The notes below the pieces were generated by a model that saw only the letters and a list, made by a program, of their open reading frames with translations, had not been told where the DNA came from and searched no databases. Of a stretch of 64,000 bases of DNA, positions 5,170 through 54,162 are shown piece after piece. The stretch is taken from positions 23,463 through 87,462 of the IMG/VR virus record IMGVR_UViG_3300028563_000014. One strand, 5' to 3'. The first letter of the stretch is position 1, and every line of letters starts with the position of its first letter. The translations under genes and the position numbers were made by a program. This stretch comes from a virus.

Positions 5170-5176
5170 GCGTCCG

Positions 5177-5206: not shown

Positions 5207-5216
5207 TCTTCGAGGG

Positions 5217-7524: not shown

Positions 7525-7527
7525 GGG

Positions 7528-37721: not shown

Positions 37722-38216
37722 TCACTTCCAGGCGCCCGCCCGCTTGTCCAGCCGGGCCGACCCGGACATCTCGCGCTGGCGCGCCATCATCTCCGGGTGC
37801 GTCTCCTGCCCCGGCTTGGCCACCATCATGAAGTCGTACCCCGGCGCCTCCTCCCGCGCCGCCTTCACCTCGTCCGAGAACTGCGCGGACATCGGGTCCG
37901 TCGCCCGCACCGGCACCCGCCGGAACTCCTCGGGCTTGGCCGCGTGCGCGCCGGCCGAGGTCTTGATCAGCAGCACCACCTCGAACGCCTCCAGGCGCTG
38001 GGGCGGGATCTTCGGCTCGGCGCTGCCGCCGCCTTCGGACGAGAGGGGCTTGCTCATGCCGGGCAGGATATCACGCGAGACGGGCACGCCGGGGTAGAGC
38101 TTGGCGATCTCCTCCGCGCTGAGCCTTCGCCCCTTCGACGTGCGCGGGTCACGCCACGGCTTCAGGCTCGGGGCGTCCTTCATGTCGCGGTAGTGGAACC
38201 TGGTCCGCGCCATCAC
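37722..38216 (-). CDS. Hypothetical protein (alternative start at 38057 after TG-A-TATCCT)
   Basis: ORF track; an extended -10 lies 7 nt before MSKPL. Confidence 0.5.
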   Translation of the reverse strand: MMARTRFHYRDMKDAPSLKPWRDPRTSKGRRLSAEEIAKLYPGVPVSRDILPGMSKPLSSEGGGSAEPKIPPQRLEAFEVVLLIKTSAGAHAAKPEEFRRVPVRATDPMSAQFSDEVKAAREEAPGYDFMMVAKPGQETHPEMMARQREMSGSARLDKRAGAWK

Positions 38217-38662
38217 CCCTCGCCCGCTGCCGGGTCCTCCGCCTCCGGCGGCGGCGCGCGCTCCGGGTCCACCACCACCGGAGGGATCCGCACACGCGCC
38301 CGGCCCTGCTTCCCGGCCCCCTCCGGCGGCTGGCGGATCTCGTAGACCGTCATCCGCGCCCCGGGCTGGACCACCAGGAACATCGCCTGGTGCGGGTAGA
38401 TCAGATCGCCCGCCTGCTGCGCGGCGCGCTCCACCTGCGTCAGCGACATCTTCGCGCGATCCTCCGAGGACAGGACGAAGACGAACGCACGCTGGTCCTG
38501 CCCCAGGTCGAAGGCGTAGGAGCGCAGCGGCGCGGCGATGTCGAGCCGGTCGGGCTCGAACGTCTCCAGCACCATCTGGCGCCGGTCCTTTTTCTTTGGC
38601 TTCGGGCGGTCCCCCGGCGGCGCGGGGACGGGCTTGGTCGCTTGGCTCATGCTGGTCATCAC
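38213..38662 (-). CDS. Hypothetical protein
   Basis: Translationally coupled to the TerL nuclease gene. Confidence 0.55.
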   Translation of the reverse strand: MMTSMSQATKPVPAPPGDRPKPKKKDRRQMVLETFEPDRLDIAAPLRSYAFDLGQDQRAFVFVLSSEDRAKMSLTQVERAAQQAGDLIYPHQAMFLVVQPGARMTVYEIRQPPEGAGKQGRARVRIPPVVVDPERAPPPEAEDPAAGEG

Positions 38663-39447
38663 CTCATGTTCAGGTCTCGCCGCCCGTCACCGGCGATGCG
38701 CCGGTTCCCCCACTGGTCGATCGCGGACTTGCAGAACCACGCCGCCATCACCCCGTCCGTGGTGCTGTACTTCGGATAGAGCGAGAACTGCCTGAAGAAC
38801 ACGCACCAGGAGCAATCGTGCCCCTCCGGGTGCCCCTCCCATTCGCCCGACGGGAAGGACCACGCCCGGTTCGAGAACTCCACCTCGAGCCCCGGCAGAC
38901 CGAACGCCGGGTCCGCCTTGTTCTTCCCGGTCGTGTGCGCCTCGACCTTCATCCAGAGAGACGGGTAGGCGGTCTTGCCCTTCTGGATCCAGTCGATCAG
39001 CGAGCCCTGGTACGCGTTGTTCTCGACCATCACGTATTGCACGTTGTGCCGGCCGCAGACGTCCGCCAGCATCATCGCCGTCTCCGGGCTCGACCAGGCG
39101 CCGTGCACCACCTCCGCCACGATCCGCCGCCGCGTGGTCGGCTCCACCACTACCACCACGATGAAGTTGCCCGGACGGGTGGCGGAGGACAGGTCGACCC
39201 CGACGTAGGCCGGCCACATGCGCCGGCGCACCTCGGAGACGATCAGGCCCGGCTCGCAGCAAAGCTTGAAGCTCGGGAACTTCAGGTCGCCGGGCTTGAT
39301 CACCTGCATCCGGAACCCCTGCAGCCACATGGCGTGGCCGCCCTCGTCGCCGCCGCGCGCCTTCTGCTCCAGGACGTCGCGCGGGAACTTGCTCTCCCAC
39401 AGCGGCAGGTCCGGGAGCTTCTGAACGCTGACGGCGCGAGGGCTCAC
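38659..39447 (-). CDS. Terminase large subunit, C-terminal RNase H-like nuclease domain (stand-alone gene)
   Basis: Linker 'PLWESKFPRDVLEQK', 'YVGVDLS' (first catalytic Asp), 'VMVENNAYQ', 'GKNK' and terminal 'TTDGVMAAW'. No ATPase domain. Confidence 0.8.
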   Translation of the reverse strand: MSPRAVSVQKLPDLPLWESKFPRDVLEQKARGGDEGGHAMWLQGFRMQVIKPGDLKFPSFKLCCEPGLIVSEVRRRMWPAYVGVDLSSATRPGNFIVVVVVEPTTRRRIVAEVVHGAWSSPETAMMLADVCGRHNVQYVMVENNAYQGSLIDWIQKGKTAYPSLWMKVEAHTTGKNKADPAFGLPGLEVEFSNRAWSFPSGEWEGHPEGHDCSWCVFFRQFSLYPKYSTTDGVMAAWFCKSAIDQWGNRRIAGDGRRDLNMR

Positions 39448-39608
39448 GTTCTAGCGCCCCACCTCGACCATGCCCTTGAAGCTGCAGCCGCCGTGGAAGT
39501 AGGCGCCCGCGTCCGCGTTCGGGAACTTCTCTCCAGGCTTGGTCTCCATCGGGCCTCCTTGTCGTTCTCGGATCTGCTCTTCTCCAGTCACTGCCAAAAT
39601 AGGCGGCT

Positions 39609-41075
39609 TCACCGGTCCACCGGCCCCGGCAACACCACCGGCCGCTCGACCACCGTGACCGCATCCGCGGCGAACGCGGCCTCTGCCGGCGCCGGGTCGA
39701 CCACCGAGAACGTTGGCACCACCACCGGCGGCGGGCAGGCCCGCAGGAACCGCTCGCCCGCCGCGCCCCAGTCCAGGTTCCGGAACCACGCCTCCACCGC
39801 CAGGTGCTGCCCGGCCCCGCCGTGGTCCGGGACGTACGCGTGCTCGTGGCAGCAGCAGGCGAAGACCACGGGCCAGCCGGCCGGCGCGCCGCCATCGTTC
39901 AGCGCCAGGTTGCGCAGGCGCCCCTCGCCAGGATCCCAGCACGTCAGCGCCCAGGCGTCGGCGCCCATCGCGAGCTGCCGCAGGTCCGCCTGCCAGTCGT
40001 CAACCGAGCCGTACGCGAGAGCCAGCGCAGCCTGCAGCGGCGCCGCGCTGGCTCCTCCGGCTGTCACTCCCGCTACCGCGCCGCCCGCTCCCGCCAGCCC
40101 CTGGAAGAAAATCTCATGCAGGACGGCATCTTGCGCGGCCTCCGTCTCCTCTCGCGCCACCTGCGCGCGCTCCGGCGGCGTCACCTTGGGTTTTCCCAGG
40201 TAATCGGCCACGGTTCCCGCCAGGCGGGTAAACGGCTCCTGGTAGCCGGGCAGGCTGGTGGCGGGGTCGCCGTAGAACAGGCCGAGGCCCGTGACCATTA
40301 GCGCCACCGTCTCCAGCTTGAAGGCGGCGCGCGAGTCCTCCTGGTAGCCCTCCGTGTCCCCGCCGAGCCAGGCGGCGAAGGTCTCGGCCCAGTCCTCGTC
40401 CGGGTGCTTCTGGGCGTAATGGGCCATCTGGCCCTGGCCCGGCCGGTCGAGGTTCCGGACGTAGTCGGCGGCGCGGGCGGGGTCCGGCTCATAGGCGTCG
40501 AGGTACGGGCGAGCGAAGTCCCCGAAGGCGGTGCGCCACTCCGGGTGGGTCCAGCGCTGGTAGGCGTAGAGCAGCGCGTGGCCCGTCTCGTGGCGCAGGA
40601 CCCGCATCTTCTCCTCGTCCGTCAGCGGGTCGCAGAGCGCCGCGGTGACCGGGGAGCCCAGGTACCAGGGCAGGTTCACCGAGCAGGCGCGGTCCGTCGT
40701 CCAGTAGTCGTTGGTCCCCAGGTAGAAGCCGGGGACCCAGGCGATGCCCTTCGCCTGTAGCTCCTCCTGGAGGCGGGTGAGCAGGCCGTTCGCCGGCTCC
40801 TGGAGCAGGGTCAGGTTCAGCAGGGAGACCGGCGTCTCCAGGGTCATCTGCACCTCCTCGGGCGGGAACGCGGCGGCGGCCGGCGGCAGCTTCCAGGCCA
40901 TCGCCTGGCGCCGCTGGCGCGCGCTGGCGAGGCGGGCCTGGGCCCGGGCGAGGACCGCCAGGTGCTGCCGCAGGGCCGCGTCGCTCGTGCCGGTGAGGGT
41001 TCCTACGAGCCTGGCTTCCAGTGACGTCGCATCCTGCATCCAGGCCAGCGTCTCGCGGAGCCGATCTCTTTGCAA
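39609..41075 (-). CDS. Fusion: HExxH zinc metallopeptidase-like domain plus Fe/Mn superoxide dismutase-like C-terminal domain
   Basis: 'LRHETGHA...YAQKHPDEDWAETFAAWL', then 'LHEIFFQGL...YGSVDDW...WALTCWD...CCHEHAY..DHG...VEAWFRNLDW'. Start codon uncertain. Confidence 0.7.
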   Translation of the reverse strand: MQRDRLRETLAWMQDATSLEARLVGTLTGTSDAALRQHLAVLARAQARLASARQRRQAMAWKLPPAAAAFPPEEVQMTLETPVSLLNLTLLQEPANGLLTRLQEELQAKGIAWVPGFYLGTNDYWTTDRACSVNLPWYLGSPVTAALCDPLTDEEKMRVLRHETGHALLYAYQRWTHPEWRTAFGDFARPYLDAYEPDPARAADYVRNLDRPGQGQMAHYAQKHPDEDWAETFAAWLGGDTEGYQEDSRAAFKLETVALMVTGLGLFYGDPATSLPGYQEPFTRLAGTVADYLGKPKVTPPERAQVAREETEAAQDAVLHEIFFQGLAGAGGAVAGVTAGGASAAPLQAALALAYGSVDDWQADLRQLAMGADAWALTCWDPGEGRLRNLALNDGGAPAGWPVVFACCCHEHAYVPDHGGAGQHLAVEAWFRNLDWGAAGERFLRACPPPVVVPTFSVVDPAPAEAAFAADAVTVVERPVVLPGPVDR

Positions 41076-41098
41076 GCGCGATTACGCGCCCGAGCTGG

Positions 41099-41881
41099 TC
41101 AGCCCGCGGGACGGAGCCGGATCTCGGACCAGCGGATCTTCGCGTCGTACCGCCCGTCAGGCTTCGTCTGCGGCGAGATGCACCAGGGCCACTTCCGCGA
41201 GAACGCGTCGACCATCGCCCGCTCCCGGCCGCTGGTCGCGTACACCGGCGCCAGCCCGCCGTCGTTCGACCCGTTCTTCGGGGCGGCGAACCCGACCTGG
41301 CAGGCGCGGACGGCGTCGTACCCGCTGGCGATAACCTGGACGGTGTAGTCCCGGTCCCCCTTCAGCTCGAGCGACGGGTCGTACGCCACCCCGTGGCTCT
41401 GCCCCAGACTGACCCGGTTCGCCACGACCACGTCACAGTAGCCGTTCCGCTTCGCCGGCTTCTTCGCAGCCCAGGAGAACTGCTGGTACTCCAGGGCGAC
41501 CTGGCCCACGTCCTCCGTGATGAGCGCCTGGGCCTCCAGCAGGGCCTCCCGAGCAGACGTCGGCGCGTTCTTGCCGTCGCGCGCTCGGAAGAACCCGGAG
41601 ACGTCGTCGTCGATCATCCACAGCCACTCCAGGCCCTGCGCGCGCCCCAGCGCCATGACGCTGCTCCGGCTGAACGGGAGTCCCCGCCCGTTCCCCGCCA
41701 GGACCACCAGCTTGTGGTCCGGCTGCGCCAGCCGGTACGCCTTCTCCTCGGCCGGCTCGACGACGACGTTCGCCTTGATTCCCTGCTCCGCCAGGAGCGG
41801 CAGCAGCTTGGAGATCTTGGCGCGCCCCTTGGACGGGACGAAGATCGGGAACAGGTCGGTCGCCGGCGTGGCCTTCTTCAT
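41099..41881 (-). CDS. TET/JBP-associated GT-A glycosyltransferase
   Basis: 'PIFVPSKGRA', 'WMIDDDV', 'GDRDY..Q' and 'GSNDGG' motifs; ATG overlaps the dioxygenase stop. Confidence 0.8.
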   Translation of the reverse strand: MKKATPATDLFPIFVPSKGRAKISKLLPLLAEQGIKANVVVEPAEEKAYRLAQPDHKLVVLAGNGRGLPFSRSSVMALGRAQGLEWLWMIDDDVSGFFRARDGKNAPTSAREALLEAQALITEDVGQVALEYQQFSWAAKKPAKRNGYCDVVVANRVSLGQSHGVAYDPSLELKGDRDYTVQVIASGYDAVRACQVGFAAPKNGSNDGGLAPVYATSGRERAMVDAFSRKWPWCISPQTKPDGRYDAKIRWSEIRLRPAG

Positions 41882-42699
41882 ACTTTCTTTTCCGCGGCCC
41901 GGTCGACCGCGCGCTTCGTCTTCACCCGCTGGATGCGCAGGAGCTCGTCCGCCATCGGCAGGCAGTTGCACATGGCCTTCATCGCGTAGAAGACCACCGA
42001 GTAGCGGTAGGACATGCTCGACCGCCGCACGATCGGCGTCACCCCGTGGGCCACGTCGGCACCGTCGAACATGATCAGCGCCGGCTTCTGGAACGAGAAC
42101 CCGAGGCCCAGCTCCGGCATGGCCAGGACCCCGCCTTCCGTATCGAAGCAGAGCGCGTACATCGCCGACCACAGGCCCTTGAAGTTGCCGGAGTCGCGGT
42201 GGTACCGGAGCGTATTGTTCCGGTTGGCGATCCCGGACGTGAACGCGGTCCCGGGGATCCGCCACTCCGGCAGCACCGCCGACACCGCCTGCTCCTGGTG
42301 CGCGTAGCGCCCAGGGTTCGTCGCCCGGTAGACCGCGTCCGCCTTCCGAGCGTACTCGCACAGCACCTCGTGCTGCGCCGGGTGCTGCGTGGCCATCGAC
42401 GCCTTGGTGCAGAAGTCGCGGCGGAGCGTCACCCGGGGCAGCGACCCGAACGTCCGGCTCTCCGTCACCAGCCCGTCCGTACGTGCCGTGTTCTGGAACT
42501 CGATCGCGTTGCAGGCGTTGCGCAGGCCCCACACGTCAGCCGGCTTCATCATCCGGAAGGCAACCACCAGCTCGCCCCCCACCAGGACGTCCTCGTCCTC
42601 CTCCACCAGGCGCTCGTAGTCACTCGCCTGCGCCCCCCGAAACTTCAACGCCTTCACGTCGACGGCGCGCCGCTGGACCTCAGTCCTTCTTCTTCTCAT
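41878..42699 (-). CDS. 2OG-Fe(II) dioxygenase, TET/JBP family
   Basis: 'FTSGIANRN..LRYHRDSGN' (HxD), 'HGVTP' (distal His), 'RYSVVFY' (2OG-binding Arg). Confidence 0.85.
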   Translation of the reverse strand: MRRRRTEVQRRAVDVKALKFRGAQASDYERLVEEDEDVLVGGELVVAFRMMKPADVWGLRNACNAIEFQNTARTDGLVTESRTFGSLPRVTLRRDFCTKASMATQHPAQHEVLCEYARKADAVYRATNPGRYAHQEQAVSAVLPEWRIPGTAFTSGIANRNNTLRYHRDSGNFKGLWSAMYALCFDTEGGVLAMPELGLGFSFQKPALIMFDGADVAHGVTPIVRRSSMSYRYSVVFYAMKAMCNCLPMADELLRIQRVKTKRAVDRAAEKKV

Positions 42700-43372
42700 A
42701 CGTCTCCAAGAGCAGCACCAGGGCGGCGGAGTGGTTGTCGACCTTGCCCAGCTGCATCACGCGGGCGAGCCGGGCCAAGATCTTCCCCATGGCCGCGTCC
42801 TTGAACGGGAAGACGATCTGCCGGATGACCCCCTCGCCGGCCACCCCGGGCGCCAGCGTCGTGTCCGAGCTGCCGCCCGAGGACGCCGCCCTCAGCCGTG
42901 CGAAGGCGTCCTCGTCCCACCCGACGCGCGCCAGGCCCGCCGGCCCCGAAGCCTCGTGCAGGCGCTGCAGCACTGGCGCCAGATCCGCCTGACTCCAGCC
43001 GCCGATCTCCACCCAGCGGTTATCGGCCAGCAGGTAGCCCTCTGCCTCCTGCTCGTTCTTGAACGCCACCCCGCGCAGGACAGGCGCCATCCACTCGCCT
43101 GTCTTCGGGTCGCGCCGGATGTACTTCGGTGGTCGTTCCGCGTCCTCGGCCACGAGGTGCTCCAGCGCCTCCAGCCGGCCGTGGCCCGCCACCAGGCGCC
43201 CGGTCCGCGCGTTCTCGATCAGCACCTCGGCGAACCCGTGCTCCCGGATCGAAGACGCGATCCCAGGGATGTCGTGCTTCTTCGGGTTGCGCTTCGCGCG
43301 CTTGATCTCGGAGAGCCGGACGTACTCGACCAGCGGCATGTCCTCGCCGGCCACCGCGACGGCGGCGGTCAC
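42680..43372 (-). CDS. ParB/Srx-like N-terminal domain protein (paralog 2)
   Basis: 'NPKKHD...IASSIREHGF...LVAGHGRLEAL...YLLADNR'. Start is GTG 43372 or ATG 43339. Confidence 0.8.
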   Translation of the reverse strand: MTAAVAVAGEDMPLVEYVRLSEIKRAKRNPKKHDIPGIASSIREHGFAEVLIENARTGRLVAGHGRLEALEHLVAEDAERPPKYIRRDPKTGEWMAPVLRGVAFKNEQEAEGYLLADNRWVEIGGWSQADLAPVLQRLHEASGPAGLARVGWDEDAFARLRAASSGGSSDTTLAPGVAGEGVIRQIVFPFKDAAMGKILARLARVMQLGKVDNHSAALVLLLETYEKKKD

Positions 43373-44139
43373 GCCGCACCTCGCAGAGGCTTCAGCTTCC
43401 GCACCTGCTCGAAGCGCGAGATCAGCCGCTCCAGCGCCTCTGAGTTGGAGCCCACCTTCTCTCGGCGCATCACGCGCGACAGGCGCCCCAGGATCGCCTC
43501 CGTCTCCGCCGCCGGGAAGTAGACCACGATCTGCTTCACCGCCCCGGCGTTGTACCCCTCGGCCAGACCAGCGGGCGTCTTCCCGCGCGCCGCCGTGCTG
43601 GCGTCGAAGTCGGACAGGTACCGGCCGATGGCCTTCTCGGACCAGCCGATCGCTGCCAGCTCTCCCTTGTCGGCGCGCTGGGACAGGCGCTCGAGCATCG
43701 GCACCAGCAGTTCCGGATCCCACCCGCCCTTCTCCACCCAGCGGTTGACCGCGATCAGGTACTCCTCCGCGGCCTGCTCACTGGGGAAGGTGATGCCCTT
43801 CAGCACCGGGATCATCCACTCGCCATCGGGGGCGAGCTTCACGAACCGCGGGACCTCCTTCGGGTCCTCCGTGTAGAGCTGGCGCGCCGCCGCCAGGCGC
43901 CCGTGGCCGGCGGCGATGCGGCCGGACTCGGCGTTCTCCACGAGGGGGGCGACGAAACCGTAGCGCCGGATGGAGGCCGCGATCCCCTCCTCGTCGTGCT
44001 CCTTCGGGTTGCGCAGCGCCGTCCGGATCTCCGACAGCCTGACGTGCTCGACCCAGGAGCCGTCGCCCGCCGAGGGACTAGTTAGTACCGGCTCGCCGGC
44101 GGGGCTACTCGGCTTCTTCTTAGTCGCGGTCTTTGCCAT
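43369..44139 (-). CDS. ParB/Srx-like N-terminal domain protein (paralog 1)
   Basis: 'NPKEHD...IAASIRRYGFVAP...IAAGHGRLAAA...YLIAVNR'; TGG-TACCGT -10 upstream. Confidence 0.8.
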   Translation of the reverse strand: MAKTATKKKPSSPAGEPVLTSPSAGDGSWVEHVRLSEIRTALRNPKEHDEEGIAASIRRYGFVAPLVENAESGRIAAGHGRLAAARQLYTEDPKEVPRFVKLAPDGEWMIPVLKGITFPSEQAAEEYLIAVNRWVEKGGWDPELLVPMLERLSQRADKGELAAIGWSEKAIGRYLSDFDASTAARGKTPAGLAEGYNAGAVKQIVVYFPAAETEAILGRLSRVMRREKVGSNSEALERLISRFEQVRKLKPLRGAA

Positions 44140-44165
44140 GAACGATTACGGTACCACCGAACCCA

Positions 44166-46901
44166 TCACGGCCCGAACGTCCCGAACAGATCCGCCGGGT
44201 GCGGGTTTCCCGCCCCCACCGCCCCGACGTCCGTATTGCGGGCCCCTACGTCGTCCGCCGGGTCGCCGCTGTCGATGACCGGGCTTCCAGCGGTCGGCGT
44301 GTACATCGCGCGATAGGCGGCGAGCACCTGGGCTACCGTCGTGCAACGGGACCAGATCGCTCCGTCGGCGTAGGCGAACGGGACCTGCCGCGCCTGGGCG
44401 AACTGCGGGTCTGTGCTGGCGCCGCCGCCGATGTCGTGGGCACCGAGGCCAGTGTCCGCGTAGGGCGTGAGCAGCGTGGTGTCGGGGTTCCAGAAGCCGT
44501 TGTAGTCGGCGCTGGCCACGGACCCGGGACCGAAGACAGCCACGGGGTTCCAGAAGTCGAAACCGACGAACAGGTTGTTCCTCGCGCTCGTCAACTGCCA
44601 ACCGTTCCCCGGCGCGAACGGCGAGTAGTGCCAGCCCAGCAGCGCGCCCCCGGCGTCGACCGTGTTGTTGTAGAACGACCCGGTCGACAGCGTGATGCCG
44701 CCGCTCGGGTAATACGGCGAAGCGAACCCAACGTTCGCCAGCACATTGTGGTGAACGGATGCGTTCTGCGCGCCGCGGAGGAACGCCTCGCTGAGGCCGT
44801 CGACCATCAGGTTGAAGCGCGCCTCGCCGGCCAAGTCCTGGATCATCCAAGATCCGCCGCGCAGCAGGTTGTGCTCCAGCAGCGACGGCGCCTGCGAGAA
44901 AGTGTTGACAAAATCGACCACGTGCCCCTGCGACCAACCGTAGGGGTAGCGGTGATAGACGACGTTCCCGCTGATGACGTCGCTGCTGCTGTCGTCGAAC
45001 TCCAAGCCGGCTCGGACGCCGATGAGGACGTTTCCTGCCGCGCTCGTCGATCCACCAACGAGCCAGCCGCTGGTGGCGTCGAACCGCACGAAGCTGACGC
45101 CCACGTTGTTGCCGCTGAAGGTCTTGGCTCCGGTCGAGTTGCCCGAGAGCGTGAGGCTCGGGTGGCTGCCGTCGTAGTCGGGCGTGGCGTTGACGGTCGT
45201 CAGGATGTTCGCCGCCAACGTGTTGCCGCTGAAGGTGATCGGAGCGGAACCCTCGGCGCCCAGCGCCAGCGGGCCGGTGCGGTCGAACACCGATCCGCTG
45301 ACCTCCAGCGGGGCGGTGCCGACGACGTCCACGGCGATGCTGGACACGTCCATCGAACCGAGCCCGATCACGTCGACATTGCGCAGGATGAGGTGCCCCG
45401 TCCACCCCGTGGCGCTCCGAATGCGCGAGCCGTTGCTGCTCGTGAGTAGCGCCCGTGCACCTGGCGATCCGATGAACTCGAAGTCGGTCGACCCGGACAA
45501 AACGAGGTCGCTGGCCAGATCCATGTTGGGGCCCGCGTGCGGGCCGACATCAACGACCGTGATCGGCACGTACTGGCTCTCGACGGTGCCGCTGGCCATC
45601 CGGCTGCGCGCGTAGACGTCGTACGTTCCCGCGGCCACGCCCGTCACGTCCACCTGGTAGTAGTCGTAGGGGCTGCTCGTGGTCGCGTGCACGCTGCTGA
45701 CCAGCGTCGACCCAAGGTAGATGTCCACGTCGGGCGAGTAGTTGTTCACGCCATCGCTTCCGTAGTCGGGGGCGTGCGCCCAAATCCTGATGGTCGCCGG
45801 GGCGAAATAGGTCATGCCGGCCACGGGGGTCATCACTCTGACGTAGGGGACGGCCGCGGTGAAGTACGGCTCGACCGGCCACGATGTGCAGGCCACGCCG
45901 CCCGTTCCAGCTGATCCACCGACGCCTCCCGCGCCGCCAGTACCAGCAGATCCGCCAGCGCCAGCCGATCCGCCCGTTCCCATCGAACCGCCGGTCGACC
46001 CGCAGGTGACCACTCCTCCGGTGCCCACGCCAGCGACGCCCGCGGTCCCGCCGCCTACAGACCCACCCGCCGAGCCGCCCGCCGCACCGCCGACTGACCC
46101 ACCGGCTCCTACGACGGAGCCGCCCGCGCTTCCTCCGACGCTCCCAGCCGCGCCACCGGCACCGCCGCCACCGGCGACGAGCGGCGTGCTCGCGTCCGTC
46201 TGCAGCTCGGCCAACGCTAACGCCCGCTTGTAGATGCGCAGGTCGTCGACCCGCCCGTGGAAGAAATCGCCGAACACGGCGTTGCCTCCGATCGTCAGCG
46301 CGTCGTTGGTCTGGACGATCGAGATCGCCGATGCCTTGCTGCCCACCTGCGATACCGTGCCCGCGGTCGCCTCGAAGAGCCTGAGGGTGGCGTGGTCGTA
46401 GGTCATCGCGACGTAGGTCCACTGGCCCGCGGCGGGCATGGTGCCGGCCGCCAGGTCGACGTCGGAGGCGGACGCGATCCGGGCGAGCGGCTGGGTCGAG
46501 TTCCACCCGTAGAGGCCATAGGCCAGCGCGCTCGGGCGCCCCTTGGAGACCACGTCCTGCCACGATCCGCCGGTGCCGTCCGGGGCGATCCAAGCTGAGA
46601 TCGTCAGGCCCGTCGAGAGGTCCAGCGGGCTGCCGGTCCCGGGATCTGCCACGGTGATCAGGCCGGCGCCGTCGAAGGCCAGCGCGCCGCCGTACTTGCC
46701 AGTGGCCCACGTCTGGTGCGCGGTGACGACGCCGTCGAGGTGGTTCGTGGTCACATCGTGGAGGGCCGAGCCGGCCCCCTCGTCGAAGTTGTAGCCGGCG
46801 ACCAACGCGGCATCGAGCGCGCTACGAGCAGACTGAAGAGTGTCGCCCGACCTGCACGACGCGATCACGAGGCACCCCAAGAGGACGACGATACGTTTCA
46901 T
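44166..46901 (-). CDS. Large lipoprotein: LamG domain, Gly-rich linker, Ig-like domain, beta-helix
   Basis: ATGA-coupled start MKRIVVLLGCLVIASC (lipobox). 'YNFDEGAG...FHGRVDDLRIYKRAL' LamG. GTGGSAGAGG linker. C-terminal 'GSPVIDSGDP...DVGAV'. Confidence 0.8.
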   Translation of the reverse strand: MKRIVVLLGCLVIASCRSGDTLQSARSALDAALVAGYNFDEGAGSALHDVTTNHLDGVVTAHQTWATGKYGGALAFDGAGLITVADPGTGSPLDLSTGLTISAWIAPDGTGGSWQDVVSKGRPSALAYGLYGWNSTQPLARIASASDVDLAAGTMPAAGQWTYVAMTYDHATLRLFEATAGTVSQVGSKASAISIVQTNDALTIGGNAVFGDFFHGRVDDLRIYKRALALAELQTDASTPLVAGGGGAGGAAGSVGGSAGGSVVGAGGSVGGAAGGSAGGSVGGGTAGVAGVGTGGVVTCGSTGGSMGTGGSAGAGGSAGTGGAGGVGGSAGTGGVACTSWPVEPYFTAAVPYVRVMTPVAGMTYFAPATIRIWAHAPDYGSDGVNNYSPDVDIYLGSTLVSSVHATTSSPYDYYQVDVTGVAAGTYDVYARSRMASGTVESQYVPITVVDVGPHAGPNMDLASDLVLSGSTDFEFIGSPGARALLTSSNGSRIRSATGWTGHLILRNVDVIGLGSMDVSSIAVDVVGTAPLEVSGSVFDRTGPLALGAEGSAPITFSGNTLAANILTTVNATPDYDGSHPSLTLSGNSTGAKTFSGNNVGVSFVRFDATSGWLVGGSTSAAGNVLIGVRAGLEFDDSSSDVISGNVVYHRYPYGWSQGHVVDFVNTFSQAPSLLEHNLLRGGSWMIQDLAGEARFNLMVDGLSEAFLRGAQNASVHHNVLANVGFASPYYPSGGITLSTGSFYNNTVDAGGALLGWHYSPFAPGNGWQLTSARNNLFVGFDFWNPVAVFGPGSVASADYNGFWNPDTTLLTPYADTGLGAHDIGGGASTDPQFAQARQVPFAYADGAIWSRCTTVAQVLAAYRAMYTPTAGSPVIDSGDPADDVGARNTDVGAVGAGNPHPADLFGTFGP

Positions 46902-47437
46902 TGACGGATTCCCTTCTGGTTCGTTGTGTACTGAGCGGGCAGGATCTTCTTCGTTGCTGGCGGCGGCGTCCACTGCGGCAGCGGGATGGCCATCTCCGGG
47001 AACGTCGCGCGGTAGGTCGCCAGGTCGCAAGCCCCGACGAACGTCCGTGGCTTCCACCCTCGGTCGGCCAGGCGCTTGGTGACACCCAGCTTCCGCGAGG
47101 CGATCGTCGCGATGCCCCGGTCGACCTGCACCACCCAGGCGCACGGGTCGTCCAGGATGACTGGGCGCTTCACCTCGACGTCGCCCGCCACCATGTCGAA
47201 CACCGCTTCGCACTCCAGCGGCCGGGTCGACGACGCGCAGCCGTCGCGGTTCCCCGACGCGATTGCCATGGCTTCGGCCAGCTCATCGTGCGCGTCGATG
47301 CAGGCGCGGTCGTTCGCCGCGCACTCCGGCACGTCAGGGTCCGGGAGCGCCGGCCCGTAGACCGGGCGCGGGTCAGGGCGGAAGTAGGGCAGCGGGTCGA
47401 CGGCGAGGACCCCCAACAGGACAGCGAGCAGCGTCAT
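46898..47437 (-). CDS. Hypothetical exported Cys-containing protein
   Basis: Hydrophobic N-terminus; coupled to both neighbours. Confidence 0.5.
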   Translation of the reverse strand: MTLLAVLLGVLAVDPLPYFRPDPRPVYGPALPDPDVPECAANDRACIDAHDELAEAMAIASGNRDGCASSTRPLECEAVFDMVAGDVEVKRPVILDDPCAWVVQVDRGIATIASRKLGVTKRLADRGWKPRTFVGACDLATYRATFPEMAIPLPQWTPPPATKKILPAQYTTNQKGIRQ

Positions 47438-47961
47438 GGTGTTCCTTTCTCTTCTGGCATCCTTCGCGTCGACCCGAACGGGACCGTCGCGTTGAAGACC
47501 CGTGGCTCCATCGCCGCGTACCGCTCTCGGTCACTGGCATATGCCCTGTCGACCAGTCGCTGGTCGGCCTCCGAGATCATGCGTCCCTGCTTCGTCTGGC
47601 AACGCAGATAGAACACCAGCCCCCACTCTCGCTCGGTCAACGCCGATGGCTCCTCCGGAGCGACGTCGATCGGGATTTCGACCTCCTTGCATCTACGGAC
47701 GTTGTGGGTCGTGCTGCCGCAGCGGGAGCAGGTTCTTCTGGTCGTCCTGGTCATCGCTCGTCGGTTCAAGAGACCGGTGTCCATGATGCCGTGGATATCC
47801 GTCACCACCCGTACTCGCTTGATGCCACGCGAGATGTGCTCAGCGTCGAGAGCTCCCGACATCCCCAGCACCGCCTTCTGCACGTACTCGGCAAGAACGA
47901 CATGTTCATCTTCCGACAGTCGGTCGACCCAGATCTCCACGGCGCAAATGAACTTGCTCAA
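47434..47961 (-). CDS. Hypothetical protein with zinc knuckle (CSRCGSTTHNVRRC)
   Basis: CCHC motif; coupled start and stop. Confidence 0.55.
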   Translation of the reverse strand: MSKFICAVEIWVDRLSEDEHVVLAEYVQKAVLGMSGALDAEHISRGIKRVRVVTDIHGIMDTGLLNRRAMTRTTRRTCSRCGSTTHNVRRCKEVEIPIDVAPEEPSALTEREWGLVFYLRCQTKQGRMISEADQRLVDRAYASDRERYAAMEPRVFNATVPFGSTRRMPEEKGTP

Positions 47962-48485
47962 AATGGCACGTCGTCGTTGTCATCGATTCCGCCAGACCGA
48001 GCGTCAGTGCCGACGTTCGGCTTCTCCTCCTCGTCGCGCGCCGCCGCGCCAGACCCGCGCCAGCCCTTCATCTTCGCGAGCCATGGGAATACGTGGAGCT
48101 CGCCGCGGTCGCCGTCCCCCTGGACCGGGCTGTCCTTGTGGATCCCCTTCGTCGGGCACCACTCCTCGGACCCGCTGGGCAGCCGGATCTTCAGGGCCTT
48201 CGCGCTCTCCTTCAGGCACACCACGTCGGCCAGGACGACTACGTCCGGCGGTGCATCGTCCTCCTCGGCCCACTGGTCGACGATCCACTGGCTGACCTCT
48301 AGGTCGAACGGCACGCCCTCGTCCGGGAACTCGAAGTCCGCCGGCACCTGGGAGCGCGGGACGAACCGCTCCGTCCCGTCAGCAAAGCGGCAGAGCATCG
48401 ACCGCTCCTGCTTCTCCGGCGGGCGCCGGTCGATCACCTGCACGTTCTCGAACTCGACCGTAGGGTCTCCGTCTTTCAGCGGCAT
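47958..48485 (-). CDS. Tandem-domain protein with SSB-like acidic tail (DDNDDVPF)
   Basis: Two similar ~60-aa beta domains; C-terminus mimics the SSB-Ct motif DDDIPF. Confidence 0.55.
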   Translation of the reverse strand: MPLKDGDPTVEFENVQVIDRRPPEKQERSMLCRFADGTERFVPRSQVPADFEFPDEGVPFDLEVSQWIVDQWAEEDDAPPDVVVLADVVCLKESAKALKIRLPSGSEEWCPTKGIHKDSPVQGDGDRGELHVFPWLAKMKGWRGSGAAARDEEEKPNVGTDARSGGIDDNDDVPF

Positions 48486-48522
48486 CGCGTTTTTCCCTTC
48501 ACGAGGATCATTGTCCGACGAG

Positions 48523-48789
48523 TCACCGGCTGCCCACTATCTGCCCGACCCACGCGCTGCGGCCGCCCGTCTTGCACCCGGGGCACGGGTGCTCGACCAC
48601 GAACAGACTGCGCAGGTCGTTCGTCCTCCTAGGCGGGTCGACCGCACCGCAGAACGCGACCCGCGCCTCGCCCGCCCGGTGCGCCGGCAGGATGCGCGGT
48701 ACCCAGTGCATCGGCTCCGGCGGCGGGGCCGGCGGCGCCTGGCGCGGCTTTCCGCGGAACAGGCGCGCCAGGAAGGACGGGAGCTTCAC
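48523..48789 (-). CDS. Small Cys-containing protein (MKLPSFLARLFR...)
   Basis: GTG overlaps the upstream stop. Confidence 0.5.
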   Translation of the reverse strand: MKLPSFLARLFRGKPRQAPPAPPPEPMHWVPRILPAHRAGEARVAFCGAVDPPRRTNDLRSLFVVEHPCPGCKTGGRSAWVGQIVGSR

Positions 48790-49070
48790 TGATCCGCCCT
48801 CCCCTCTTCCGCCGCGCGGCACGTCCTGCAGTGCAGGCGGCAATACTCCTTATGCCCGGGCGCGGTCCCTGCGGACAACGGGCACCCGGCCTCGGAGCAC
48901 GCTCCGCCCTCCCGGCCTTCTAATATCCTGGATCCGCACGTGCACGGCGGTAACGACGTGATGTCTCGCCGGCCGCACCTGCGGCAGAGCCAGTAATCGT
49001 GGTCTGCGTTGATTCCGTCGCCCGTCATACGACGCCGGAAGAAGCGCGCCAGGAAGCCTGGGAGCTTCAC
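48786..49070 (-). CDS. Small Cys-rich protein (MKLPGFLARFFR...)
   Basis: GTG overlaps the methylase stop. Confidence 0.5.
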   Translation of the reverse strand: MKLPGFLARFFRRRMTGDGINADHDYWLCRRCGRRDITSLPPCTCGSRILEGREGGACSEAGCPLSAGTAPGHKEYCRLHCRTCRAAEEGRADQ

Positions 49071-49549
49071 TCGGGCCTCTTCCAGTCCAGCCAGCGCCAG
49101 GGCTCGAGGCCCGAATACCCCTCGGGCGTGAACAGGGACAGCATCAGGTCCTTCGGGTACGGGTCCTTCTCGCCCGCGAACGTCAGGCGCGGCGCGATCC
49201 CGAAGACGTACGCCTTGCCGTGCACGTGCTCCCGGTACCAGGCGGAGCCGATGCTGGCCGGGGTGAGCATCGCGATCTTGGCGCCGCGCGCGCTCTCCTC
49301 CGCGCATTTCTTCGCCCAAGGGGCGATGTCGGCGAACGGAGGGTTCAGCCAGAGCAGCCTCCCGCCTCTCCAGTGCAGCGCCCACGGATACGAGAGCGCA
49401 TCGTCCTTCTCGGTGTAATAGCTGGCGTGGACGGCGTTCTCGTGGCTCGCGGCGAGGTCATGGACGATCTCTCCGAACCGCCGTTGCACCGCGTCCAGGA
49501 ACGGCCTCGGCGTCCCGTAGTCTTGTCGACTTTGCCCCCGCTTGCTCAT
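49067..49549 (-). CDS. Phage DNA N6-adenine methyltransferase (Dam-like family)
   Basis: 'DYGTPRPF...DLAASHENA...YYT..DDAL...WLNPPF...WAKK' with catalytic NPPF. Confidence 0.85.
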   Translation of the reverse strand: MSKRGQSRQDYGTPRPFLDAVQRRFGEIVHDLAASHENAVHASYYTEKDDALSYPWALHWRGGRLLWLNPPFADIAPWAKKCAEESARGAKIAMLTPASIGSAWYREHVHGKAYVFGIAPRLTFAGEKDPYPKDLMLSLFTPEGYSGLEPWRWLDWKRPE

Positions 49550-50181
49550 GCGTCTACCTCCAGCGAGGCTAGGATCCGGTCGCGCGCCACGTTCAGTTCC
49601 TTCAGCTTTTCCTCCGCCGCCTTCTTCGCGGCGTCGCAACTCGCCTGGTCCGGGTGCCCGTAGAACATCACCAGCGCCCGGTGCGCCGCCTTCACCAACG
49701 CGGCCGGCGCGGACGGGAGCAGGTGCAGCGCGCGCCAGTCCTCCGGCTGGACGGCGTTCCCGCGGCGCGGAGGAGGCGGGGGCGCCTGACGTTTTTGGCG
49801 CACGTAGCTGTCGGCGAAGTCGGCGAATCCGTGGAAGCGAGGACCAGGAGGCGGATCGTTGAACGGGCCGCGACTTGCCCCCCCGAACGGGTCCTCGTCG
49901 TCGACGCCGGACTTCTTCTGCTCGGCGACCACCCGCTTGCCGAGAAGCGGGTCGCGCATCAGCTCCCACCCGTGCAGCTCCGCCCCCTCACCCAGCAACG
50001 TGTGAAACGCCTCCCAGACAGAATCTCTTACGAACCAGACGCAGAGGCCCGGCCACCACATACGGCTCTTCGCCGGCACCGCCTTGAACATCGCGACTAG
50101 CCGCTGGTCGAACCGGAAGGCGTAGGCCGTCCACTTCTCCCCGTCATTCAGCTTCACCCGCGACCACCGGATCGTCATCAC
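49546..50181 (-). CDS. J-domain protein (C-terminal, HPD motif) with HARP-like N-terminus
   Basis: 'WRALHL.PSA....VKAAHRAL...HPD...EEKLKELNVA'; N-terminal 'FRFDQRLVAMFKAVP...W.....W'. Confidence 0.75.
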   Translation of the reverse strand: MMTIRWSRVKLNDGEKWTAYAFRFDQRLVAMFKAVPAKSRMWWPGLCVWFVRDSVWEAFHTLLGEGAELHGWELMRDPLLGKRVVAEQKKSGVDDEDPFGGASRGPFNDPPPGPRFHGFADFADSYVRQKRQAPPPPPRRGNAVQPEDWRALHLLPSAPAALVKAAHRALVMFYGHPDQASCDAAKKAAEEKLKELNVARDRILASLEVDA

Positions 50182-50834
50182 GGCCTAGTGACCTCCGCCC
50201 GCGGCGTGATTCCCCATCGCGCGCGCCGGAAGTCGTCCTCCTGTTTCGCCAGCTCGGCATCGGACGCCAACTCGAGCGGCGGCCCCTCTGCAGGCTGCCA
50301 GTCGCCGCGCTCGTAGCGCAGGAAGAACGTCGCCGCCTGGAACGCGTCGCGCGCCAAGACGACCTGGCGGAACGTCTTCACGTCGTAGATCTTCCAGGCC
50401 GCATCAGCCGAGGGCGGCGCCGCCACGACGCAGACGCGGAGCCCCAGCACCGCGCCGACCCGCATGAGCGTCCGGCAGACCAGCTCGACGAACTCGAACC
50501 CGGTGCCCGCCTGGTCCCACCGCGGGTGCAGGTGGTGCCCGCGCCGGTCGACCACGTTCAAGTGCGGCCGGCTCCACGAGTCGTACCAGCGCCCGTCATC
50601 GATGGCCAGCAGGAACCCGTCCTCGAACCCACTCCGCCGCTGCGGATTCCAGGCAGCGTCAGCCAGGACGAACCGAGCTGCGCGCCGGGCGATCCCGCGC
50701 AGCGTCCGACACCGCTCGGCGCCCCAGCGCGCGAGCGCCGCGGGCGCGTCCTCCAAGTACTCGCGTCCCTCCTCCGCGCCCAGCTCCTTCCCGTTCTCGC
50801 GGTCGAAGCGCGGGTCGATGCGGCCCCGGCTCAC
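50178..50834 (-). CDS. Hypothetical protein
   Basis: Coupled start and stop. Confidence 0.5.
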   Translation of the reverse strand: MSRGRIDPRFDRENGKELGAEEGREYLEDAPAALARWGAERCRTLRGIARRAARFVLADAAWNPQRRSGFEDGFLLAIDDGRWYDSWSRPHLNVVDRRGHHLHPRWDQAGTGFEFVELVCRTLMRVGAVLGLRVCVVAAPPSADAAWKIYDVKTFRQVVLARDAFQAATFFLRYERGDWQPAEGPPLELASDAELAKQEDDFRRARWGITPRAEVTRP

Positions 50835-51076
50835 GGGGAGACCTCGCCCTCGGTTTCAACCCGGTTCCGGCTGCGGAGCCCGTCCTCTAGCACGCCCAGG
50901 ACGCGCACCTGCTCCTTGTGCCCGGCGCCGTACGCGGCCAGCTGGCCCAGCAGCCACTCCTTGCAGCCGGCCGGCCAGCCGCCGGCACCGAACTTGAACT
51001 CCTTGTGTCCGCCGACGGTCAGGTTCCAGCTCGTCTTCCCGCCCGGGGACTTCTCGACGATGACCGGAATCTTCAC
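50831..51076 (-). CDS. Hypothetical protein
   Basis: Coupled start and stop. Confidence 0.5.
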   Translation of the reverse strand: MKIPVIVEKSPGGKTSWNLTVGGHKEFKFGAGGWPAGCKEWLLGQLAAYGAGHKEQVRVLGVLEDGLRSRNRVETEGEVSP

Positions 51077-51399
51077 CGGTCCACCGCCACGCGCACGGCC
51101 AAGTGAAACAGGCCCGGGTGGGCGAAGTCGCCCGCGTCGCAGTCGCTGGCGGGCTTCCCGGTCACGTCGAGACGCGCGTCCACCAGCTTGCCGATCACGA
51201 AGCCCGGACCGTCGTTGGCGTCCTCCGGGCGGTTCACCCGAACGTGGACCCAGTATTGCCCGTCCGTCGTCCGGACCACGTCCACGTCGCCCCCGGGGAA
51301 CGCCACCCGGAAGCTCTCCGGCTCCGGGTTGCGCTTGTCGCCGCAGAGCCGCACGCCCTGGACCTTCGAGCCGAAGTCCTGGACCACCAGACGCTTCAC
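51073..51399 (-). CDS. Hypothetical protein
   Basis: GTG start at VKRLVVQ; coupled to the downstream gene. Confidence 0.5.
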   Translation of the reverse strand: MKRLVVQDFGSKVQGVRLCGDKRNPEPESFRVAFPGGDVDVVRTTDGQYWVHVRVNRPEDANDGPGFVIGKLVDARLDVTGKPASDCDAGDFAHPGLFHLAVRVAVDR

Positions 51400-51893
51400 G
51401 AGAACACCGCCACCAGGAGCCCGAGAGCGCGAGCCCCCAGATCGCCGAGCTCCTCCACCAAGCCGAGCGCGAGCACCGCGCCGGCTACGATCGCCAGTTT
51501 TTTCATGTCCCTTCCTACCTTTCGAGAGCGTGTCCACCGCTCCAGCCGAACCCGGGGCACCGCCTTGATGGAATCCCCGGGGCCGGCTGCAACGCTAGGA
51601 TCCTTGCCAGCTCCTACGGGGCGTTACCCCCTTGGGCGCCTTGCGGCTCCCGCTGTGGACCGCCCGGGGGGGAAAGGACAGACCTCTCGCCGGACGTGCA
51701 AGACCGAAACTCAGGGATGCCGGCGCGCCGGTCGGCCGCCGCCTGCGCCGCCTCTAAGTCCTCCAGGACGGCGTGGACCCATGACGGGAGCGGCTCGCCG
51801 TCCATTACCCCACCTCCGTTTCTGCCAGCAATCGCTTGAGGCGGGCGGCGACGTCCAGTCCCTCCGGCCAGGCGCGGACAGCGCAGGGGGCCA

Positions 51894-52181
51894 TTACGCC
51901 ACCGCCTCCGCGTCAACTGAATAGTCCTGGTAGGCGCCGGCGCAAAAGGCGTCCCAGAGCTCGACCTGGACCTGCTGAACAATCGAGTCTCGGTCGTCGG
52001 ACTCCGTCGCCGCGTCCCACTCGTACAACCACGCGCCGGTGCGTGGCCCCTCGGATACCTCGATCTCTGCGCCAGGGAATTGTTTCGCCAGCTCAGTCGC
52101 GACGAATTCCGGATAGTGCTCGGCCTCGGGAAACGCGACGTCTCCGTCGTAGGCGGTGGTCTCAACGCTGATCTTCTTCAT
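51894..52181 (-). CDS. Acidic hypothetical protein
   Basis: GAGAGG RBS; downstream of an AT-rich promoter. Confidence 0.55.
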   Translation of the reverse strand: MKKISVETTAYDGDVAFPEAEHYPEFVATELAKQFPGAEIEVSEGPRTGAWLYEWDAATESDDRDSIVQQVQVELWDAFCAGAYQDYSVDAEAVA

Positions 52182-52224
52182 GGTCCTCTCTACCTTTCCG
52201 GGGTCCGGGTCCAACCGGCCCAAC

Positions 52225-52268
52225 GGATCTATATCTACCGTAATTAAAACCTAAACGCAAACAAAATC
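52225..52268 (-). promoter_or_regulatory. AT-rich sigma70-like promoter region
   Basis: TTTTGTTTGCGTTTAGGTTTTAATTACGGTAGATATAGAT, the most AT-rich patch seen in the window. Confidence 0.55.
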
Positions 52269-52276
52269 GTCAGGGC

Positions 52277-52307
52277 GCCGGGGGGAGCCGTTTGTAGCTC
52301 CCCCGGC
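52277..52307 (-). terminator. GC-rich hairpin, probable terminator
   Basis: GCCGGGGGAGC-loop-GCTCCCCCCGGC downstream of ORF 52328-52771, followed by a T-rich stretch. Confidence 0.55.
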
Positions 52308-52327
52308 TGACCCGCCCAGGCCGCGCC

Positions 52328-52771
52328 CTACTCCTTCACCTTCTTCGGGCGCCCGCGCTTTTTCGGGGCCGGCTCCTCGTCCTCGCCGCCGCCATCGCCC
52401 GAGGCGCCGTCGAACATCTCGTCCTGCGTCTCCTCGATCGACATCGTCCGCTCGGTGCCCGGAACCATCTCGCCCGTGTCCGCGCGCTCGATGTGCACCT
52501 TCTTCCGACGGAAGTCCTTCACCGTCACGCAGTCGACCTTGCGCTCCTCCGTCTCCGCGTCCAGCTCATCGAGCAGGACGTCGAGCTCGGCCACCACCAG
52601 GGACAGCTTCTCTTTGTGGCCGCGCGTGGCCTCCTTCATGTCGGCCTTGATCTTCTCGCGGTCCTTTTTTAGCTTCCCCGCTTTCTTGGACTTCTTGCGG
52701 ATCTCCGCTTCGGTGAGCGGGACCGGACAGGGGTGCTTGAAGGGCTTGGACATGGTGATGTCGTCGGGCAT
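52328..52771 (-). CDS. Hypothetical coiled-coil phage protein
   Basis: Charged helical protein; GAGGAG RBS. Confidence 0.6.
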   Translation of the reverse strand: MPDDITMSKPFKHPCPVPLTEAEIRKKSKKAGKLKKDREKIKADMKEATRGHKEKLSLVVAELDVLLDELDAETEERKVDCVTVKDFRRKKVHIERADTGEMVPGTERTMSIEETQDEMFDGASGDGGGEDEEPAPKKRGRPKKVKE

Positions 52772-52878
52772 GGGACCGTCTCCTCTCGTTCTGGGTTCTC
52801 TAGCCAGCGGATGATCTCCCCGACCTCGCCGGCGCGCAATTGCAATTCAGGACAGCGCTCTGTGTAAAACGGAGCGGC

Positions 52879-53262
52879 TCACGACCGTGTCCGGCGGTGC
52901 TCTTCCTCGACCGCACGCTGGACGTTGTCCGCCACGCGCTGGACCCAGAACTCGCCTACCGCCTTCCCCGCCTGGAACAGCCGGCCCCGGACGTCCTCCT
53001 CCGGGTGGCCCTCGCAGATCGCCGCCAGCGCCCCCTGCACCATCACCGCGATCACCGCGTTGACGTCCATGGTGTTCTTGCCGACCTTGAAGTGCCCCTC
53101 GACCTCCTTGGTCAGCGACGACGCCTGCTCGAGCACGGAGGAGACGACGCCGAGCATGACGTCCTCCCGGTCCAGTTCCGGCACCAGCTCTTTCACCCGG
53201 GCGCCCAGGGCCATCGCCCGAGCCGCCTGCCGCTCGTTCACTTCCTTCGAATCTTCTTCCAT
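52879..53262 (-). CDS. Hypothetical helical protein
   Basis: Directly after the TerL ATPase gene; no nuclease motifs. Confidence 0.55.
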   Translation of the reverse strand: MEEDSKEVNERQAARAMALGARVKELVPELDREDVMLGVVSSVLEQASSLTKEVEGHFKVGKNTMDVNAVIAVMVQGALAAICEGHPEEDVRGRLFQAGKAVGEFWVQRVADNVQRAVEEEHRRTRS

Positions 53263-53269
53263 GCCCAGA

Positions 53270-54097: not shown

Positions 54098-54162
54098 GAG
54101 CTTGGTATCCTGCTTCGCATCCGACCGACGATCGTAACCGACCAGACGCCCAGGAGGATCAC

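Follow-up and report, generated by a model that had tools for sequence, protein, structure and literature searches.

A ParB-linked TET/JBP dioxygenase and glycosyltransferase cassette between the terminase halves of a high-G+C phage, a probable thymine hypermodification system

The 64,000-nucleotide stretch of viral DNA analyzed here, referred to below as the window, comprises bases 23463-87462 of the 87,462-bp IMG/VR virus record IMGVR_UViG_3300028563_000014, for which CheckV reports a completeness of 100%. Its G+C content is about 70%, and nearly all genes with a high G+C content at third codon positions are located on the minus strand. An earlier note, made from the sequence alone, had marked positions 41099-44139 of the window as a possible DNA hypermodification operon. 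Our analyses indicate that the four genes in this interval probably constitute a post-replicative DNA hypermodification cassette of the ParB-dependent thymine dioxygenase type, yielding glycosylated 5-hydroxymethyluracil (glycosyl-5hmU). In the proposed mechanism, an Fe(II)/2-oxoglutarate dioxygenase would hydroxylate the C5-methyl group of thymine (T) in the double-stranded DNA of the phage, giving 5-hydroxymethyluracil (5hmU), and two ParB-like paralogs, which probably act as dimers, would activate this enzyme on duplex DNA. A glycosyltransferase (GT) with a GT-A fold would then add a sugar to the new hydroxyl group, giving a glycosyl-5hmU like trypanosome base J, and this base would protect the phage DNA against nucleases of the host. 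Direct support for this assignment comes from the gene content, the catalytic residues, the protein folds, the conserved synteny, and the fact that no route to 5-methylcytosine (5mC) or 5-hydroxymethylcytosine (5hmC) was found.

The cassette consists of four co-directional, tightly packed genes on the minus strand, and the marked span is bounded exactly by the stop codon of the GT gene and by the start of the ParB-like gene that comes first. This first gene, ParB-a (43369-44139), encodes 256 amino acids and is followed by its paralog ParB-b (42680-43339; 219 amino acids), by a dioxygenase of the TET/JBP family, also termed 5mYOX (41878-42699; 273 amino acids), which is the predicted ParB-dependent thymine hydroxylase, and by a GT-A fold glycosyltransferase of the TAGT family (41099-41881; 260 amino acids), which is the predicted DNA 5hmU glycosyltransferase. 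The start of ParB-b was placed at the ATG codon preceding MPLVEYV rather than at the start of the longest open reading frame (ORF), and that of the GT at the ATG codon preceding MKKATP. With these starts, ParB-a and ParB-b are separated by 29 nt, ParB-b and the dioxygenase gene overlap by 20 nt, and the dioxygenase and GT genes overlap by 4 nt (ATGA). The description of two ParB genes, a dioxygenase with an HxD...H...R signature and a GT-A enzyme as coupled or overlapping genes was thereby confirmed, at these positions and on this strand.

The dioxygenase matches the Pfam family Tet_JBP (PF12851) with a score of 51.7 bits against a cut-off of 34.9 (E-value 7.5e-14; residues 97-241, covering profile positions 17-164 of 164), and it represents the single PF12851 match in the record. 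It also matches phrog_6059 (3.2e-37), and its closest database homologs are at most 69% identical. The Fe(II) ligands HxD...H and the 2-oxoglutarate arginine correspond to H167, D169, H218 and R232, which are invariant in all 31 aligned homologs and likewise among the 12 closest ones. While the Pfam domain ends at residue 241, a tail of 27 residues follows the near-invariant C246 and contains the conserved residues E252, R255 and R267. The conservation of this tail was judged among the homologs of the dioxygenase itself.

The whole 87,462-bp record was searched with five Pfam families of methylases and hydroxymethylases (PF00145, PF00303, PF01555, PF02086 and PF05869). Within the entire record, neither a C5-cytosine methyltransferase (PF00145) nor an enzyme of the thymidylate synthase type (PF00303), which includes the hydroxymethylase route, was found by these profile searches, and the methylase families PF01555 (N6_N4) and PF02086 (D12 class) had no match either. 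The sole DNA methylase found with these five families is an NPPF-type, Dam-like N6-adenine methyltransferase (window positions 49178-49531, minus strand; PF05869, phrog_111). The earlier statement that no C5-cytosine methyltransferase is visible and that the only methylase is of the NPPF type, made for the window, therefore also applies to the entire phage as far as these five families are concerned, and the proposed search for such a methyltransferase elsewhere in the genome came out negative for PF00145 in the full record, rated 100% complete. Within these families, the phage encodes no route of its own to 5mC or 5hmC. A pre-replicative route through a hydroxymethylase acting on deoxyuridine or deoxycytidine monophosphate was rejected because PF00303 is absent from the record.

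The class to which we assign the dioxygenase was published in 2025-2026. ParB-linked phage 5mYOX enzymes were reported to hydroxylate T, and to make 5hmU in Escherichia coli only when their own ParB was present (O'Toole et al., PNAS 2026, PMC13229309; preprint bioRxiv 10.1101/2025.08.14.668559). According to the main text of that study, members of the ParB-dependent subclass yield 0.5-1% 5hmU on their own, a level that rises to as much as 25-35% when the cognate ParB is present, and they bear an extra C-terminal extension. The ParBs are described there as dioxygenase activators on double-stranded DNA, with a preference for the cognate ParB, and 5mYOX176 requires its ParB on double-stranded DNA only. 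In the contigs mined in the same study, the commonest neighbors were GTs (31%), ParBs (27%) and terminases (19.2%), and C5-methyltransferases amounted to 6% (PMC13229309, main text). Many 5mYOX pathways that lack a methylase were likewise considered to make 5hmU, probably, by Pyle et al. (bioRxiv 2023.12.21.572611). By analogy with these published relatives, the dioxygenase of the cassette would act on T and would be activated by ParB; we favor the step from T to 5hmU because of the published enzymology of the relatives together with the genome-wide lack of a 5mC route.

To place the cassette among its relatives, we searched IMG/VR, metagenome, genome and GenBank sequences. A scan of IMG/VR with the single dioxygenase protein retrieved no relative, and a query with an alignment then succeeded, giving 557 dioxygenase relatives. 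The best 80 of these 557, which are 35-44% identical, were used for the IMG/VR synteny counts, with their ORFs searched by iterated hidden Markov models. In 78 of the 80 loci, a ParB ORF precedes the dioxygenase on the same strand; the two others (L044 and L064) begin no more than about 730 bases from the dioxygenase. Single-sequence tblastn searches with the window proteins had detected ParB in some of the 80 loci, and the iterated models raised this number to 78. A TAGT-like GT was found in 46 of the 80 loci and at least two ParB ORFs in 17, some of the latter being overlapping or fragmentary (L005, L073). The two TerL (large terminase) halves, the portal protein and the two genes flanking the cassette (LamG and Peptidase_Mx/SOD) had no homolog in these 80 loci (tblastn, E-value 1e-4), and the cassette therefore travels without those neighbors. 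When the loci of all sources were combined, 174 loci were grouped into 103 dioxygenase clusters at 90% identity, 64 of which had adequate flanks (at least 2 kb upstream and at least 1.5 kb downstream). Among these 64 clusters, every one contained a ParB gene (64/64), and 41 contained a GT of the same type on the same strand. Two or more ParBs occur in at least 13 of the 64 clusters, and two ParBs are combined with a GT in at least 7; these numbers are lower bounds, since the contig L096, in which both ParBs are detected by blastn, is missing from the count, probably due to the removal of one over-extended ORF by the overlap filter. The complete order ParB-ParB-dioxygenase-GT recurs in four further clusters. 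In the scan of genome contigs, 12 loci with 32-42% identity were obtained, with no close relative or clue to the host among them. When the 50 longest of the 80 related records were searched for a C5-methyltransferase, 3 had a match above the cut-off. Among the 19 records that are at least 90% complete, 3 had a C5-methyltransferase match with an E-value of 0.001 or lower, and only the match in a 327-kb jumbo phage was above the cut-off.

Some of these related loci show arrangements of their own. The jumbo phage, an IMG/VR record of 327,295 bp, contains two 5mYOX copies (L024 and L028; positions 4492-5262 and 7010-7744 of the locus) that are interleaved with three ParB ORFs, and its C5-methyltransferase is located about 26 kb from these copies. 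In the locus L004 (5266-7252), the dioxygenase is followed on the same strand by a second ParB-like ORF and a C5-methyltransferase match. Judged from its open frame of 497 amino acids, the latter may represent a ParB-methyltransferase fusion.

The earlier note had left the substrate open between thymine and host-methylated cytosine, and of these two options thymine has become the better supported one, in view of the missing PF00145 and PF00303 matches, the 3 of 50 related records with a C5-methyltransferase, and the main text of PMC13229309. The alternative is that the dioxygenase acts on 5mC deposited by a host methyltransferase of the Dcm-like type, which would lead to glycosyl-5hmC at limited, host-methylated sites. 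We regard this as improbable. It finds a precedent in the clade A/B phage TET enzymes, which act as dioxygenases on 5mC and whose genes precede those of GTs (Burke et al., PNAS 2021, PMC8256090), and the published T-dioxygenases also oxidize 5mC in vitro (PMC13229309, main text), which makes 5mC a possible side substrate. The clade A/B gene clusters resemble the cassette in that a phage TET/JBP enzyme is followed by a GT in a post-replicative pathway. However, they need an adjacent C5-cytosine methyltransferase and act on Gp5mC (as described in PMC8256090), and no such methyltransferase is encoded in this genome and few are encoded in the related records. In addition, the enzymes of clades C1, C2 and D are described as inactive or nearly inactive on 5mC (PMC8256090), and the linkage to ParB that was seen in all 64 clusters is a mark of the T-oxidizing subclass.

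The two ParB-like proteins are 46% identical over 218 residues (E-value 1e-61). Neither of them had a Pfam match at an E-value of 0.01 or lower, but the family phrog_620 (ParB-like partition protein) matched ParB-a at 1e-21 and ParB-b at 1.6e-19. A profile built from 46 ParB sequences retrieved the N-terminal domains of Spo0J, ParB and Noc proteins from the PDB sequences (E-value 5.6e-13). ParB-a comprises a ParB/Srx-fold domain (approximately residues 28-137), a helical middle region and a C-terminal beta-alpha-alpha unit (approximately residues 200-250), and ParB-b shows the same domain order without the N-terminal tail of 26 residues. The AlphaFold2 (AF2) model of ParB-a has a mean predicted local distance difference test score (pLDDT) of 84.3, and Foldseek matched it to Noc, ParB and KorB. 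By VIA structural alignment, the N-terminal domain of the model aligned to ParB nucleotide-binding domains with Z-scores of 9.4-11; for residues 28-137 versus the ParB proteins of Myxococcus xanthus, Caulobacter crescentus and Bacillus subtilis and versus Noc, the Z-scores were 9.4-9.7, with a root-mean-square deviation (rmsd) of 2.1-2.3 Å over 87-90 residues. The near-invariant residues of the cassette-type family (N44, P45, K/R46, G78, R81 and N132) are present in both paralogs, Q203 is conserved as well, and ParB-b retains the N, P, K, G, H, R and N motif residues of ParB-a. The position that corresponds to the Glu residue of the GERR box in B. subtilis ParB is occupied by N or H in 45 of the 46 cassette-type ParBs. 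The ParBs of the ParB-dependent subclass are described as devoid of the helix-turn-helix DNA-binding domain found in segregation ParBs (O'Toole et al., PMC13229309). In ParB-a, the helices at residues 142-198 (pLDDT 62-84) align loosely to the region behind the N-terminal domain in KorB, Noc, C. crescentus ParB and pNOB8 ParB (rmsd 3.3-5.6 Å), which is compatible with either the presence or the absence of a degenerate DNA-binding domain. A distinct small beta-alpha-alpha unit is formed by residues 200-250, the best structural matches of which are CopG, NikR and CdbA (Z-scores 4-5.1 over 42-45 residues), and its strand was left unassigned by DSSP in the monomer model. Based on this model, we tentatively regard the C-terminal domain as ribbon-helix-helix (RHH)-like.

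Since the two ParB genes lie inside the packaging region, between the two TerL genes, it is conceivable that they serve in partition, in recognition of the packaging site or as nucleases, and that they are adjacent to the dioxygenase gene by chance or co-regulation. Indeed, ParB-fold proteins are common near terminases in phages. We nevertheless consider such a role very improbable. ParB accompanies the dioxygenase in all 64 clusters, across phages in which no match to the TerL halves was obtained (E-value 1e-4), and the published genetics point to activation with a preference for the cognate ParB (PMC13229309, main text), although the same text reports that no stable ParB-5mYOX complex was detected. 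Of the earlier remark that ParB-like genes often occur near terminases, the presence of such genes is borne out here, but a view of them as mere bystanders does not agree with their published function as activators of the dioxygenase.

For the GT, the match to the Pfam family TAGT (PF20691) has a score of 58.5 bits against a cut-off of 27.5 (E-value 1.1e-15; residues 11-197), and phrog_842 is matched at 9.4e-20. The AF2 model (pLDDT 89.3; predicted template modeling score 0.88) has a GT-A fold, with 422 structural matches at E-values of 0.001 or lower. The top PDB matches found by Foldseek are AvpGT, TarP, TarS, PcManGT and RmlT (E-values 2.5e-8 to 5e-7; TM-scores 0.48-0.56). For phage GT-A enzymes shown to glycosylate 5hmC in DNA, TarP was likewise matched in the PDB (Pyle et al., bioRxiv 2023.12.21.572611), and according to the same source their nearest structural relative is the Trypanosoma cruzi base J glucosyltransferase JGT, with an identity of about 9%, and their active-site motifs read R...DDD...EDY/F. 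In an alignment of 29 sequences, the corresponding residues of the cassette GT are conserved as follows: R20 in 29, D91 in 22, D92 in 29, D93 in 23 and D176 in 28. With the Pfam cut-offs passed, the invariant HxD...H...R residues and the GT-A fold, the earlier assignment of these genes to a hypermodification operon with a TET/JBP enzyme and a linked GT-A enzyme is supported. The glycosylation step is proposed from family membership, fold and conserved synteny; the transfer of a sugar onto 5hmU, the identity of this sugar and the biological role of the modification are purely inferred.

Several points weigh against a glycosyl-5hmU product, in addition to the in vitro oxidation of 5mC by T-dioxygenases mentioned above. 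The third motif of the GT reads G175-D176-R177 instead of EDY/F, so that only the central D176 is kept at this position, whereas its relatives have E in 21 and Y or F in 25 of the 29 sequences. No paper and no chemical proof of a phage glycosyl-5hmU made by a 5mYOX enzyme and a GT was found in our literature searches. Furthermore, the main text of PMC13229309 ties the ParB-dependent subclass mostly to kinases, amidotransferases and amino-acid transferases and the GTs mostly to the ParB-independent clade C2, and reports that many ParB/5mYOX pairs stay below 5% 5hmU even with their own ParB. An alternative that takes up some of these points is that the dioxygenase makes 5hmU but that the GT targets a cell-envelope polymer or a protein, the final base being plain 5hmU or a further oxidized form. 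The altered motif, the best PDB folds, which are those of wall-teichoic-acid GTs (TarP, TarS) and small-molecule GTs, and the fact that glycosylation of 5hmU by a phage TAGT enzyme was not found in the literature searches are in line with this alternative. We judge it unlikely, as the TAGT match is above the Pfam cut-off, the same TarP match is obtained for GT-A enzymes known to glycosylate 5hmC in DNA (bioRxiv 2023.12.21.572611), and the GT gene adjoins the dioxygenase gene on the same strand in 41 of the 64 clusters, with an ATGA overlap in the window.

Altogether, the cassette, which is known here from its genes, fits the ParB-dependent T-dioxygenase class on each feature tested. As in the clade C1 system 5mYOX176/ParB176, the dioxygenase gene directly follows a ParB-like gene with terminase genes nearby. 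Further features shared with the 5mYOX176-type systems are a ParB with an N-terminal ParB/CTPase fold and a C-terminal domain and the lack of a neighboring C5-methyltransferase, and the conserved tail behind C246 is consistent with the extension reported for their dioxygenases beyond the last Cys conserved in both subclasses. Unlike the single ParB of these systems, the cassette contains two diverged paralogs (46% identity). Its partner enzyme is a GT-A enzyme, in contrast to the kinases, amidotransferases and amino-acid transferases of the subclass defined by O'Toole et al., and yet the GT is the majority partner among the clusters studied here (41/64). With the trypanosome base J pathway (JBP1/JBP2 and JGT) the cassette shares the predicted chemistry, namely conversion of T to 5hmU by a TET/JBP enzyme and subsequent O-glycosylation by a GT-A enzyme, but it lacks the J-binding and SNF2 domains, includes ParB-like putative activators and occurs in a phage. 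A similar arrangement is found in genes 72-77 of the cultured Arthrobacter phage Kharcho (OQ938578.1), where tandem ParBs directly precede a 5mYOX gene annotated as 'oxidoreductase' and TerS and TerL adjoin. Identity to the Kharcho dioxygenase is 38.7% across 70% of the query; this locus differs in that an adenylate-kinase-like gene takes the place of the GT behind the 5mYOX gene and that TerL is one gene. In the Rhodococcus phage Tonitrus, likewise cultured, ParB is followed by a small hypothetical gene, a gene annotated as 'Tet-like J-binding protein', two more small hypothetical genes, aGPT-Pplase2 and a kinase.

Phylogenetic analysis of the ParBs united ParB-a and ParB-b as sisters (support 0.989) to the exclusion of the one ParB encoded on the contig L097. 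The pairs of L020, L083 (Kharcho), L091, L026 and L014 also each group with themselves (support 0.90-0.99), and the pairs of L035/L080 and of L060/L107 reflect older, shared duplications. This self-grouping implies that the tandem pairs arose either by repeated independent duplication or by gene conversion between the tandem copies. The main text of PMC13229309 contains no mention of tandem or duplicated ParBs, paralogs or heterodimers, and a C-terminal RHH-like domain of ParB was not found in it. These statements on what is in print cover the main texts of PMC13229309 and PMC12704722, the supplements of which may hold neighborhoods with tandem ParBs or GT pairings. One joint reading of these observations is that ParB-a and ParB-b form a heterodimeric activator, that their RHH-like domains contact the DNA, and that the resulting clamp loads the dioxygenase and the GT onto the phage DNA during its preparation for packaging, giving virions with glycosyl-5hmU. 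This reading is speculative, and we consider it rather doubtful. If it were true, the RHH-like domains would provide the contact with DNA that had escaped detection in the published work, selection for an activator of two subunits would underlie the tandem duplication of ParB seen in at least six lineages, and the inactivity of some single ParB/5mYOX pairs in E. coli might be explained.

As a discovery, the cassette adds little to the literature, because the class has already been published, together with its usual neighbors (GTs, ParBs and terminases) and the scarcity of C5-methyltransferases. Its value is to add one more example from a complete genome, with a G+C content of about 70%, in which the ParB-activated thymine dioxygenase pathway, defined only recently, is joined to a GT-A enzyme. 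The predicted product, if confirmed, would represent a bacterial-virus counterpart of trypanosome base J, and the variants with tandem ParBs offer a route to asking how a ParB fold switches on an Fe(II)/2-oxoglutarate enzyme.

With respect to its setting, the cassette is located between the ATPase and nuclease halves of the large terminase, which is encoded by two genes 13.8 kb apart. In the TerL profile phrog_38, the gene for the ATPase part (window positions 53270-54097, minus strand) corresponds to positions 266-469 and the gene for the nuclease part (38659-39447, minus strand) to positions 486-698. The placement between terminase halves that the earlier note had proposed is thus corroborated by matches to successive parts of one profile. 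A coupling of modification to packaging, which had also been suggested, has a purely positional basis. In the contig L097 (26-7286), which is the nearest contig with context and encodes a dioxygenase that is 47% identical, the order is TerL end, single ParB, dioxygenase, GT and portal, and the cassette thus lies on the opposite side of the TerL nuclease region compared to the window. The tie of the cassette to the packaging module persists, and its exact position shifts. A consensus scan of positions 38000-55000 revealed no promoter-like sites, and terminator-like sites in this region were no more common than in shuffled sequences (9 versus 6.9 ± 3.4). No operon boundaries were set from these scans.

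The gene on the downstream side of the cassette (39609-41075, minus strand), 23 nt from the GT gene, encodes a protein of 488 amino acids with a zinc-peptidase-like Peptidase_Mx region (1.7e-6) and the C-terminal domain of an Fe/Mn superoxide dismutase (SOD; 1.5e-7), and had no match in the PHROG profiles. A function as redox helper of the Fe(II) dioxygenase is conceivable. Directly upstream of ParB-a lies a gene for a LamG/Big_7 protein of 1015 amino acids (44166-47213, minus strand), which looks fast-evolving and is possibly involved in receptor binding.

The contig L096 represents a strain variant of this region and matches window positions 39609-46953 at 96.2%. The prefix Ga0265338 is common to the contig names of its source metagenome and to the name of the 327-kb phage contig. 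Between L096 and the window, only 2 nt in 3,036 differ within the four cassette genes, which is too few for selection on the cassette to be measured. Next to this near-identical cassette, the upstream LamG gene reaches an identity of 91%, its alignment having 19 gap openings, and the Peptidase_Mx/SOD gene shows 11 synonymous and 11 non-synonymous codon changes. Between the Peptidase_Mx/SOD and TerL nuclease genes, L096 contains a segment of about 880 bp (L096:7346-8226) that is missing from the window (39512-39608). Genes seem to be gained and lost in the interval between the two terminase halves.

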